Shown here piece by piece: positions 63,670 to 63,811 of a stretch of 64,000 nt of DNA; position 1 is the first letter of the stretch; each line of letters starts with the position of its first letter. The stretch covers positions 294,795 to 358,794 of the forward strand of contig CAZNUP010000001.1 of NCBI GenBank assembly GCA_964576435.1, in the 5' to 3' direction. Origin of the DNA: an uncultured Gammaproteobacteria bacterium. GTDB lineage: Bacteria > Patescibacteriota > Microgenomatia > JAMCZE01. The translations under genes were made by a program, and so were the position numbers. The notes under the pieces are model-generated. The model did no database searches. It was not told the DNA's origin and was given only the letters and a program-made list of their open reading frames with translations.

Positions 63670-63740
63670 TATTATCGGTTTAATAAACAAAGCGTTTGAG
63701 TCTGACTTTCCACCAGGCGAGCTTTGAGAGGTTGAGAAGC

Positions 63741-63809
63741 AAATTAGGTGGCACCACGGTAACACCGTCCTAATGTATACTAATAATAGTGTAGTAAAGG
63801 ACGGTTTTT
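63741..63809 (+). promoter_or_regulatory. T-box-riboswitch-like element: conserved T-box sequence AAATTAGGTGGCACCACGG followed by an intrinsic terminator (CCGTCC…GGACGG + T5), immediately upstream of serS
   Basis: Matches the T-box consensus AAUUAGGGUGGNACCGCGG. The UGGC bulge would pair with the NCCA end of a tRNA with discriminator G, as tRNA-Ser has. Terminator stem 63765-63770 / 63799-63804 with T-run 63805-63809. Confidence 0.55.
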
Positions 63810-63811
63810 AT

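Follow-up and report, generated by a model that had tools for sequence, protein, structure and literature searches.

The 142 nt that separate an HD-like open reading frame (ORF) from serS, the gene encoding seryl-tRNA synthetase (SerRS), at the end of a 64,000-nt stretch of contig CAZNUP010000001.1 (the whole stretch analysed, hereafter the window) probably contain a strongly reduced T-box riboswitch that responds to tRNA-Ser, in which Stem I is ultrashort and the Stem II domain is missing. The leader possesses the individual T-box elements, and its antiterminator and terminator are mutually exclusive. Its helices covary among relatives, its elements are conserved under selection, and the genes downstream of it are serine-related.

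Discriminator, terminator and specifier hairpin of the serS leader

A preceding sequence-only reading of the window had recognised a T-box antiterminator sequence before serS and a variable base C complementary to G73 of tRNA-Ser. Both observations were borne out. The sequence AAATTAGGTGGCACCACGG at 63741-63759 is unique in the window even when 3 mismatches are allowed (0 occurrences expected by chance) and folds as a canonical antiterminator (Table 1). The base in question is C63752, part of a UGGC that was found in 10 of 10 leaders when related serS loci were gathered from genome, metagenome and Logan assemblies (loci designated L below). In a register-checked table of 10 leaders, helices A1 and A2 are paired throughout and show covariation; in L085 the A2 helix reads GCGA/UCGC. 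RNAalifold predicted no structure from the antiterminator alignment, in which four rows were misaligned owing to apical inserts and shifts of 1 nt in register. The window’s other short T-box motifs resembling AGGTGGNACC are located within long ORFs and have no antiterminator structure.

The terminator hairpin and T-run that the same reading had placed just before serS are likewise present, with the U-run ending at 63809. Alternative pairing of antiterminator and terminator is possible: they share 63764-74, the 3’ half of the antiterminator being the 5’ arm of the terminator, with predicted energies of -8.4 and -19.3 kcal/mol, respectively. On these modelled stabilities, this is the normal default-off arrangement of a T-box. 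Equivalent hairpins followed by U5-7 are found in L088, L089, L016, L092 and L085, where they change in concert with the antiterminator sequence.

In the window, L088, L089 and L085 the 3’ arm of the terminator includes AAGGA or AAGGG, so placed that the U-run forms the spacer between this likely Shine-Dalgarno (SD) sequence and an AUG 8-11 nt downstream. L016 carries a separate GAAGGAGG after its terminator, and the clade therefore uses SD sequences. The terminator probably doubles as an SD sequestrator. In L008 and L011 there is no U-run, and the 3’ strand of A1 pairs with the start-codon region (GUCCUAACAUAU/AUAUGUUGGAC, -9.4 vs -9.0 kcal/mol); in these folding models both leaders appear to be purely translational, with a hairpin masking the AUG. 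The terminator designs together with the AUG masking in L008 and L011 imply that the family uses both regulatory modes.

Several leaders differ in detail. Lineage-specific insertions at the apex of A2, of 17 nt in L088 (790-812) and 34 nt in L089 (1100-1140), recall the ‘stem Sa’ insertion of staphylococcal glyS. L093 (1355-1410) and L096 (235-295), both long forms that retain a middle domain, have a degenerate bulge, UGGCAAC, and a terminator overlapping the antiterminator by only ~2 nt. These two leaders may be decaying or using another switching geometry. About 100 nt lie between terminator and serS in L093, and the expression platform of the L086 leader has no clear terminator.

A small hairpin of 5-6 bp is situated just 3’ of a conserved extended -10 element in all ten leaders. 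Among nine distinct hairpins, 6 of 6 pairs showed compensatory double changes and 98.1% of cells were paired. The covariation score was reached by 0 of 500 shuffles, and the signal was lost when partners were slid by 1-3 columns. In L092, L016 and L011 (55.8, 50.8 and 36.6 bits, respectively) the Rfam T-box model RF00230 aligns its Stem I base (aaGCGuU.GA ... GAGCu) to this hairpin at high posterior probability. Stem II, IIA/B, Stem III and the antiterminator are matched no less well, while 7-8 nt stand in for ~74 consensus positions that comprise the internal specifier loop, AG bulge and distal loop. The family thus descends from T-boxes; its Stem I is ultrashort and presents the codon in the terminal loop. 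The kink-turn (K-turn)-like loop of GUUUGA/GA type is present in the window, L088, L089, L011 and L092, occurs as an AA variant in L093 and L096, and is absent in L085, L086, L008 and L016. A search between the -10 element and the hairpin of the window revealed no distal Stem I motif, that is, no AG bulge and distal loop forming an elbow-binding platform. In L086 (1275-1320), a decayed second Stem I-like copy (AAAGCGUUGCUUUUGUAGUCCUGGCUUUGCUUUGGAC) stands between the -10 element and the real Stem I.

The loop motif UUCC does not vary among the distinct hairpins (9 of 9), and the base after it is A, G or, in a single hairpin, C. In the window this places UCC-A in the range where the sequence-only reading had suggested a serine specifier, although in a terminal and not an internal loop. 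G73 is characteristic of bacterial tRNA-Ser, and the other frames of the loop, UUC (Phe), CUU (Leu) and CCA (Pro), correspond to A73 tRNAs. UCC plus purine is thus the predicted serine specifier, as C63752 of the bulge matches G73 of tRNA-Ser and not A73 of the tRNAs for Phe, Leu and Pro. This assignment is independently supported because every regulated downstream gene is serine-related.

The window has neither Stem II nor IIA/B: only 17 nt (63726-42) lead from Stem I to A1. GAGAG in this linker fits RRRNG, and in the RF00230 alignment AGAGG falls on AGuGg and AAGCAA on the 3’ strand of Stem III. An RRRNG-Stem III-AA discriminator motif, which the linker with its GAGAG, candidate Stem III and AA resembles, has been defined (PMC7778990), as has a RAG motif (PMC11297988). 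The candidate Stem III (63731-33/63738-40) has a GAGA loop and at most 3 bp, a pairing without covariation support among the only three short forms to compare. In addition, GCUU at 63721-24 could pair with the 5’ strand of Stem I or with AAGC at 63737-40.

At Rfam gathering thresholds (93 bits for RF00230), the scan of the window detected two tRNAs only and no T-box. The RF00230 scan proposed by the sequence-only reading, run in E-value mode, gave a match at 63524-63775 that is statistically real (E 3.8e-7 locally, 4.8e-5 across the 64-kb window) but, with 38.7 bits, sub-threshold. High posterior probability was confined to the antiterminator part, and the ‘Stem I’ part was placed weakly inside the HD coding sequence. 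The score is low because the leader lacks ~74 Stem I consensus positions as well as Stem II and IIA/B in their entirety; relatives scored 23-56 bits. A weak L20_leader match at 8425-8539 on the minus strand (25.8 bits, E 0.82), inside the dnaK 3’ end/dnaJ 5’ region, was dismissed as a chance hit.

Table 1. Predicted elements of the serS leader in the window, followed by the identity of leader segments between the window and L088
Feature	Positions	Strand	Remarks
Putative extended -10 promoter, TGaTATTAT	63667..63675	+	from sequence; predicted start ~63682
Ultrashort Stem I	63689..63725	+	in the minimum free energy (MFE) fold of 63683-63811; covariation; 36/37 identical to L088
Stem I basal helix AAAGC/GCUUU	63689-93/63721-25	+	
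Stem I asymmetric internal loop GUUUGA/GA	63694-99/63719-20	+	K-turn-like, 4-nt bulge rather than 3-nt
Stem I hairpin helix GUCUG/CAGGC	63700-04/63714-18	+	
Stem I 9-nt terminal loop ACUUUCCAC	63705-13	+	
Predicted specifier, Ser codon UCC (63709-11) + purine A63712	63709..63712	+	invariant U before it
Linker between Stem I and A1, 17 nt	63726..63742	+	GAGAG 63726-30, 3-bp Stem III candidate, AA 63741-42
Antiterminator	63743..63774	+	high-posterior RF00230 alignment; -8.4 kcal/mol
Antiterminator helix A1 AUUAGG/CCUAAU, 6 bp	63743-48/63769-74	+	
T-box bulge UGGCACC, 7 nt	63749-55	+	UGGC 63749-52 would pair with tRNA 3’ GCCA; variable base C63752
Antiterminator helix A2 ACGGU/ACCGU, 5 bp	63756-60/63764-68	+	loop AAC
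Intrinsic terminator	63764..63809	+	-19.3 kcal/mol; U5 run ends 63809, 2 nt before serS ATG
Terminator lower stem ACCGUCCU/AGGACGGU	63764-71/63798-805	+	
Terminator upper stem	63776-82/63787-93	+	
Likely SD AAGGA in terminator 3’ arm	63797..63801	+	10 nt before ATG; predicted
serS 5’ end, seryl-tRNA synthetase	63812..64000	+	starts MLDIKYIRENP; ATG 63812-14; extends beyond the window
Stem I, window vs L088			36/37 aligned bases + 2-nt indel
AA-A1-bulge-A2, window vs L088			20/20
A2/A1 3’ strands, window vs L088			10/11
SD/terminator 3’ arm, window vs L088			8/9
Spacer -10 to Stem I, window vs L088			2/13
Linker, window vs L088			8/15
Terminator apex, window vs L088			6/22

Full-length serS on an identical Logan contig (L001) encodes the domains Seryl_tRNA_N and tRNA-synt_2b, and the start MLDIK is common to all SerRS homologues compared. 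The gene call on the Logan contig chose an in-frame ATG at 63773-63775 (L001:3444), within the 3’ strand of the antiterminator, as serS start, which adds 13 residues (MYTNNSVVKDGFY); this call is probably wrong and the MLDIK start at 63812 is preferred. The window SerRS shares 83% identity with its counterpart in ‘Microgenomates group bacterium GW2011_GWA1_48_10’, the other relatives being proteins of the Candidate Phyla Radiation (CPR)/Patescibacteria. The host is an ultra-small CPR bacterium of Microgenomates-like type. Among genome contigs the closest serS is that of L003 (CAZSSJ010000015.1), a GTDB-representative metagenome-assembled genome, whose SerRS is also 83% identical to the window’s. 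The upstream HD-like ORF occupies 63058-63669, and the gap to serS agrees with the ~140 nt of the sequence-only reading. This ORF had no Pfam or NCBIfam match at E<=1e-3 and has only an LLHDADYE motif, leaving the ‘HD’ label unconfirmed; the gene order lysS-HD-serS is syntenic in several relatives.

The promoter proposed by the same reading, TTGCTC (63647-52)-N17-TATTAT (63670-75), is present as a sequence, but its -35 has only 3 of 6 matches and a promoter scan did not flag it; the extended -10 is the better feature. The TGA stop of the HD-like ORF is embedded in this putative element. TGTGATAWWAT recurs directly 5’ of related leaders, including those of L016 and L088 (TGATATTAT), which have no preceding HD gene. 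Transcription of the leader would thus start near 63682.

Relatives, reduction series and selection

Comparison with serS leaders of related genomes, another suggestion of the sequence-only reading, yielded ten further loci with a homologous leader. It is located directly upstream of serS in L008, L011, L086, L092, L093 and L096, and elsewhere precedes a serine-related gene followed by serS, namely a HAD-IB phosphatase gene in L088, L085 and L016, and a His_Phos_1 gene in L089. The HAD proteins have SerB as best NCBIfam match (~110 bits, under the equivalog cutoff of 144), and the best match of the L089 His_Phos_1 protein is the phosphoserine phosphatase PspA. Among the relatives examined, the leader is absent in L003/L005, L006, L007, L010, L012-15, L017-18, L094, L095 and L097; L090 and L091 are cut off upstream. 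In L003/L005 the order HD-serS is unchanged, and the two genes are a mere ~21 nt apart. A scan of genome contigs returned two loci only, neither with the leader.

Judged by their sequences, the relatives form a reduction series from a full Stem II over a mini Stem II to none. Full Stem II, IIA/B and Stem III are kept in L092 and L016. In L011, L089, L085, L086, L093 and L096 a mini Stem II hairpin whose loop is rich in purines (AGGAAAUG) is followed by an IIA/B-like CGGG..CCCG and then by an F-box-like CGUNA; double changes were seen at 5 of 5 pairs of this mini Stem II, with pairing in 100% of cells. A middle domain is missing from the window, L088 and L008, in which 17 to ~30 nt with a conserved RAGAAGY-AA extend up to A1. 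The short-form Stem I of L008 has a different, fully compensated stem, CUUUGG/CCAGAG, and its internal loop resembles the L016 lineage. Since L008 is a short form of an L016-like lineage, there were at least two losses of the Stem II domain.

L008 (165-301) and L011 (1620-2000) have identical serS genes (100% at four-fold sites) and identical discriminators, and differ by a swapped 5’ cassette. This cassette lies between the HD stop and AAGAAGCAAGTTAGG, with the breakpoint within the leader. It comprises ~70 nt with the short-form Stem I in L008, and ~300 nt in L011, where it includes a 73-aa ORF with no family hit as well as a long-form leader that has mini Stem II and IIA/B.

Selection on the short form was assessed by comparing the window (or the identical L001) with L088, the SerRS proteins of which are 83% identical. 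Four-fold degenerate sites of serS are only 34% identical and hence saturated. Stem I, the antiterminator strands with the bulge, and the SD-bearing terminator arm are almost unchanged at this distance, as opposed to the promoter-proximal spacer, the linker and the terminator apex (Table 1). Under neutral expectations, the probability of the observed Stem I identity is <1e-9. Recent transfer of the whole leader does not explain this pattern, because the spacers diverged. The mosaic of conserved and diverged segments indicates selection on the leader elements.

Proposed mechanism and competing explanations

In the mechanism that we propose, RNA transcribed from ~63682 would first fold the miniature Stem I, presenting UCC in its terminal loop, and the canonical discriminator would come after the 17-nt linker. 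When uncharged tRNA-Ser(GGA) is abundant, its anticodon would pair with UCC, possibly in an interaction extended via the invariant upstream U residues, and its free 3’ end GCCA would pair with UGGC of the bulge, stabilising the weak antiterminator against the default terminator. RNA polymerase would then read into serS, and the SD AAGGA would stay exposed. Charged tRNA-Ser would provide no such stabilisation, so that the terminator forms, transcription ends 2-6 nt before the ATG and, on full-length mRNA, the SD is hidden. The complex would have to be held without an elbow-binding distal Stem I and without Stem II/IIA/B. Candidate sources of affinity are pairing extended by the invariant U residues to A37/A38 (UUUCC:GGAAA), the long variable arm of tRNA-Ser, and a loop-bulge contact of CCACC (63710-14) with GGUGG (63747-51).

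Several points weigh against this reading. Binding of tRNA-Ser by the window leader is what we infer from its sequence. No tRNA-Ser gene was found in the window or in 20 fetched loci, and the GGA isoacceptor of the host, its G73 and its anticodon loop are therefore assumed to be as in bacteria generally. Stem III is no more than a vestige, with ambiguous pairing. Only three short-form sequences in two lineages are known, and all family members score under the curated Rfam threshold. The leader is dispensable, being absent from the close relatives L003/L005, L006, L007, L094, L095 and L097. Furthermore, ultrashort Stem I RNAs that lack Stem II reportedly bind tRNA barely or not at all, and transcriptional T-boxes generally need an elbow-binding distal Stem I (PMC7583486, PMC11297988); contrary to this requirement, the window leader is without both domains.

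The reported lack of measurable tRNA binding by truncated Stem I RNAs if Stem II is missing (PMC7583486, PMC11297988) would also be compatible with a decaying relic, namely a T-box-derived leader which lost tRNA decoding after deletion of Stem II and persists only as a leaky, constitutive attenuator with an SD-masking hairpin, or as a terminator of lysS-HD. Absence of the leader from six close relatives and the decay signs in L093/L096, with their altered bulge and a terminator barely overlapping the antiterminator, point in the same direction. We nevertheless consider a relic unlikely. In the mosaic of window and L088, next to no change is seen in the specifier hairpin and the T-box bulge, as against randomised spacers and synonymous sites, and UUCC and UGGC are kept in both independent short-form lineages, together with compensatory changes in the hairpin stem. 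Moreover, a plain terminator would need neither a conserved antiterminator nor a codon loop. Somewhat less likely still is a sensor of the acceptor end only, or a factor-assisted one, in which charging is read at the tRNA 3’ end and specificity or affinity come from a protein, the variable arm or the CCACC/GGUGG contact. The latter complementarity, which involves the top of A1 and UGG of the bulge, is perfect in all three short forms and is used in the MFE fold of 63660-63815; an enlarged 9-nt loop (NCUUUCCAC) is common to both short forms, and no known compensating RNA domain is present. However, this complementarity is partly forced by the resemblance of UCC+A to NCCA and is imperfect in long forms, no candidate protein or direct evidence speaks for a factor, and with the two-point pairing UCC:GGA plus UGGC:GCCA intact, the sequence data do not require one. 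[quoted passage not shown]

The sequence-only reading had offered two options for the shortness of the leader. According to one, Stem I overlaps the HD-like gene, and the leader would be a canonical full-length T-box with a long Stem I inside the 3’ end of this gene and a promoter further upstream. RF00230 indeed places its positions 1-148 on 63524-63660, where AGAGA and GUGUGAG-like strings are found, and there is no terminator between the HD gene and the leader. This placement has a low posterior probability and many non-canonical pairs, however, and the specifier GAA-codon region is deleted in the alignment. Near-identical leaders stand behind unrelated upstream sequence, without an HD gene, in L088, L085 and L016, the model puts the Stem I base on the mini hairpin in relatives, and the hairpin is separated from the HD coding sequence by the conserved extended -10. 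We regard a hidden Stem I as highly improbable and rejected it on account of the posterior probability, the recurrence of the leader and the alignment of the relatives; the MFE fold starting at 63683 contains the mini Stem I. The other option, a reduced T-box, is the one favoured by RF00230, with the Stem I base on the small hairpin in L092, L016 and L011, and by the occurrence of the same leader behind non-HD genes. Altogether, we consider a reduced, tRNA-Ser-responsive T-box the likely identity of the leader.

Relation to described T-boxes and significance

With the canonical transcriptional T-box (RF00230; e.g. tyrS and serS of Bacillus subtilis) the window leader shares the 14-nt T-box sequence, the antiterminator with its 7-nt UGGNACC bulge and an exclusive, more stable terminator. 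Further shared features are a Stem I base (GCG..GA/GAGC) that may form a K-turn, a gene-matching codon followed by a purine, and an aminoacyl-tRNA synthetase gene downstream. In contrast to canonical T-boxes, it is without the S-turn/internal specifier loop, the AG bulge and the elbow-binding distal loop (~74 positions), and without Stem II and the IIA/B pseudoknot; of Stem III only a vestige remains, a terminal loop holds the codon, the SD is inside the terminator, the score is 38.7 vs 93 bits, and the host is a CPR bacterium, not a Firmicute.

Short or ultrashort Stem I domains occur in the translational T-boxes of actinobacterial ileS, where Stem II and IIA/B compensate and are essential (PMC7583486, PMC11297988). 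This class (Mycobacterium smegmatis, M. tuberculosis) has a truncated Stem I without elbow-binding motif, as has the window leader. It keeps Stem II and IIA/B, as do the long forms L092, L016, L011, L089, L085, L086, L093 and L096, whereas the window, L088 and L008 have neither. Its SD sequestration operates without a terminator, whereas the window has a GC-rich hairpin plus U5, with sequestration possible in addition; L008 and L011 fit the translational design. The two also differ in specificity (Ile vs Ser) and phylum. Only glycine T-boxes are without Stem II and IIA/B, and these keep a long Stem I (PMC7583486, PMC11297988). The glyQS type and the window leader thus have in common the lack of both domains, a short linker with Stem III only, and transcription attenuation. 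The full-length Stem I of glyQS, however, binds the tRNA elbow by its distal platform and permits fast capture, whereas the window leader has no platform and is assigned to Ser, not Gly. Being clearly T-box-derived on the evidence of its discriminator, terminator and specifier, and having no distal Stem I, no Stem II and a score under the threshold, the window leader shows an architecture outside the described classes.

Tentatively, and with a confidence just short of even, we propose that no natural T-box known so far has a smaller architecture. The part engaged in sensing would amount to ~86 nt (63689-63774), about as many as in the tRNA that it binds, and would identify tRNA-Ser by the codon loop and the NCCA-binding bulge alone, while taking the termination decision co-transcriptionally. 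If true, this would contradict the rule that a T-box cannot do without at least one of distal Stem I and Stem II/IIA/B, and that a long Stem I is required in transcriptional ones. According to current structural and kinetic work, tRNA capture depends on the distal Stem I platform or, if Stem I is short, on the Stem II/IIA/B groove, and transcriptional switches in particular rely on the long Stem I for rapid capture. T-boxes are a model for the recognition of a large RNA by another RNA, and a selected leader without both domains and with a strong terminator is a direct test of the capture rule. The natural reduction series and the short/long cassette swap between L008 and L011 provide ready-made comparison constructs. 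If functional, the leader would represent a minimal RNA for tRNA decoding and readout of charging, useful for compact tRNA sensors.

We found no description of T-boxes in CPR/Patescibacteria in the open-access literature searched. TBDB collected class II T-boxes only from Actinobacteria and class I hits (PMC7778990). The CPR leaders stay under the Rfam threshold and were probably missed by this collection strategy as well. Gene regulation in CPR bacteria has been described as virtually unknown. These bacteria depend on scavenged amino acids. If the proposed reading is true, native tRNA-sensing riboswitches would be established in CPR/Patescibacteria.

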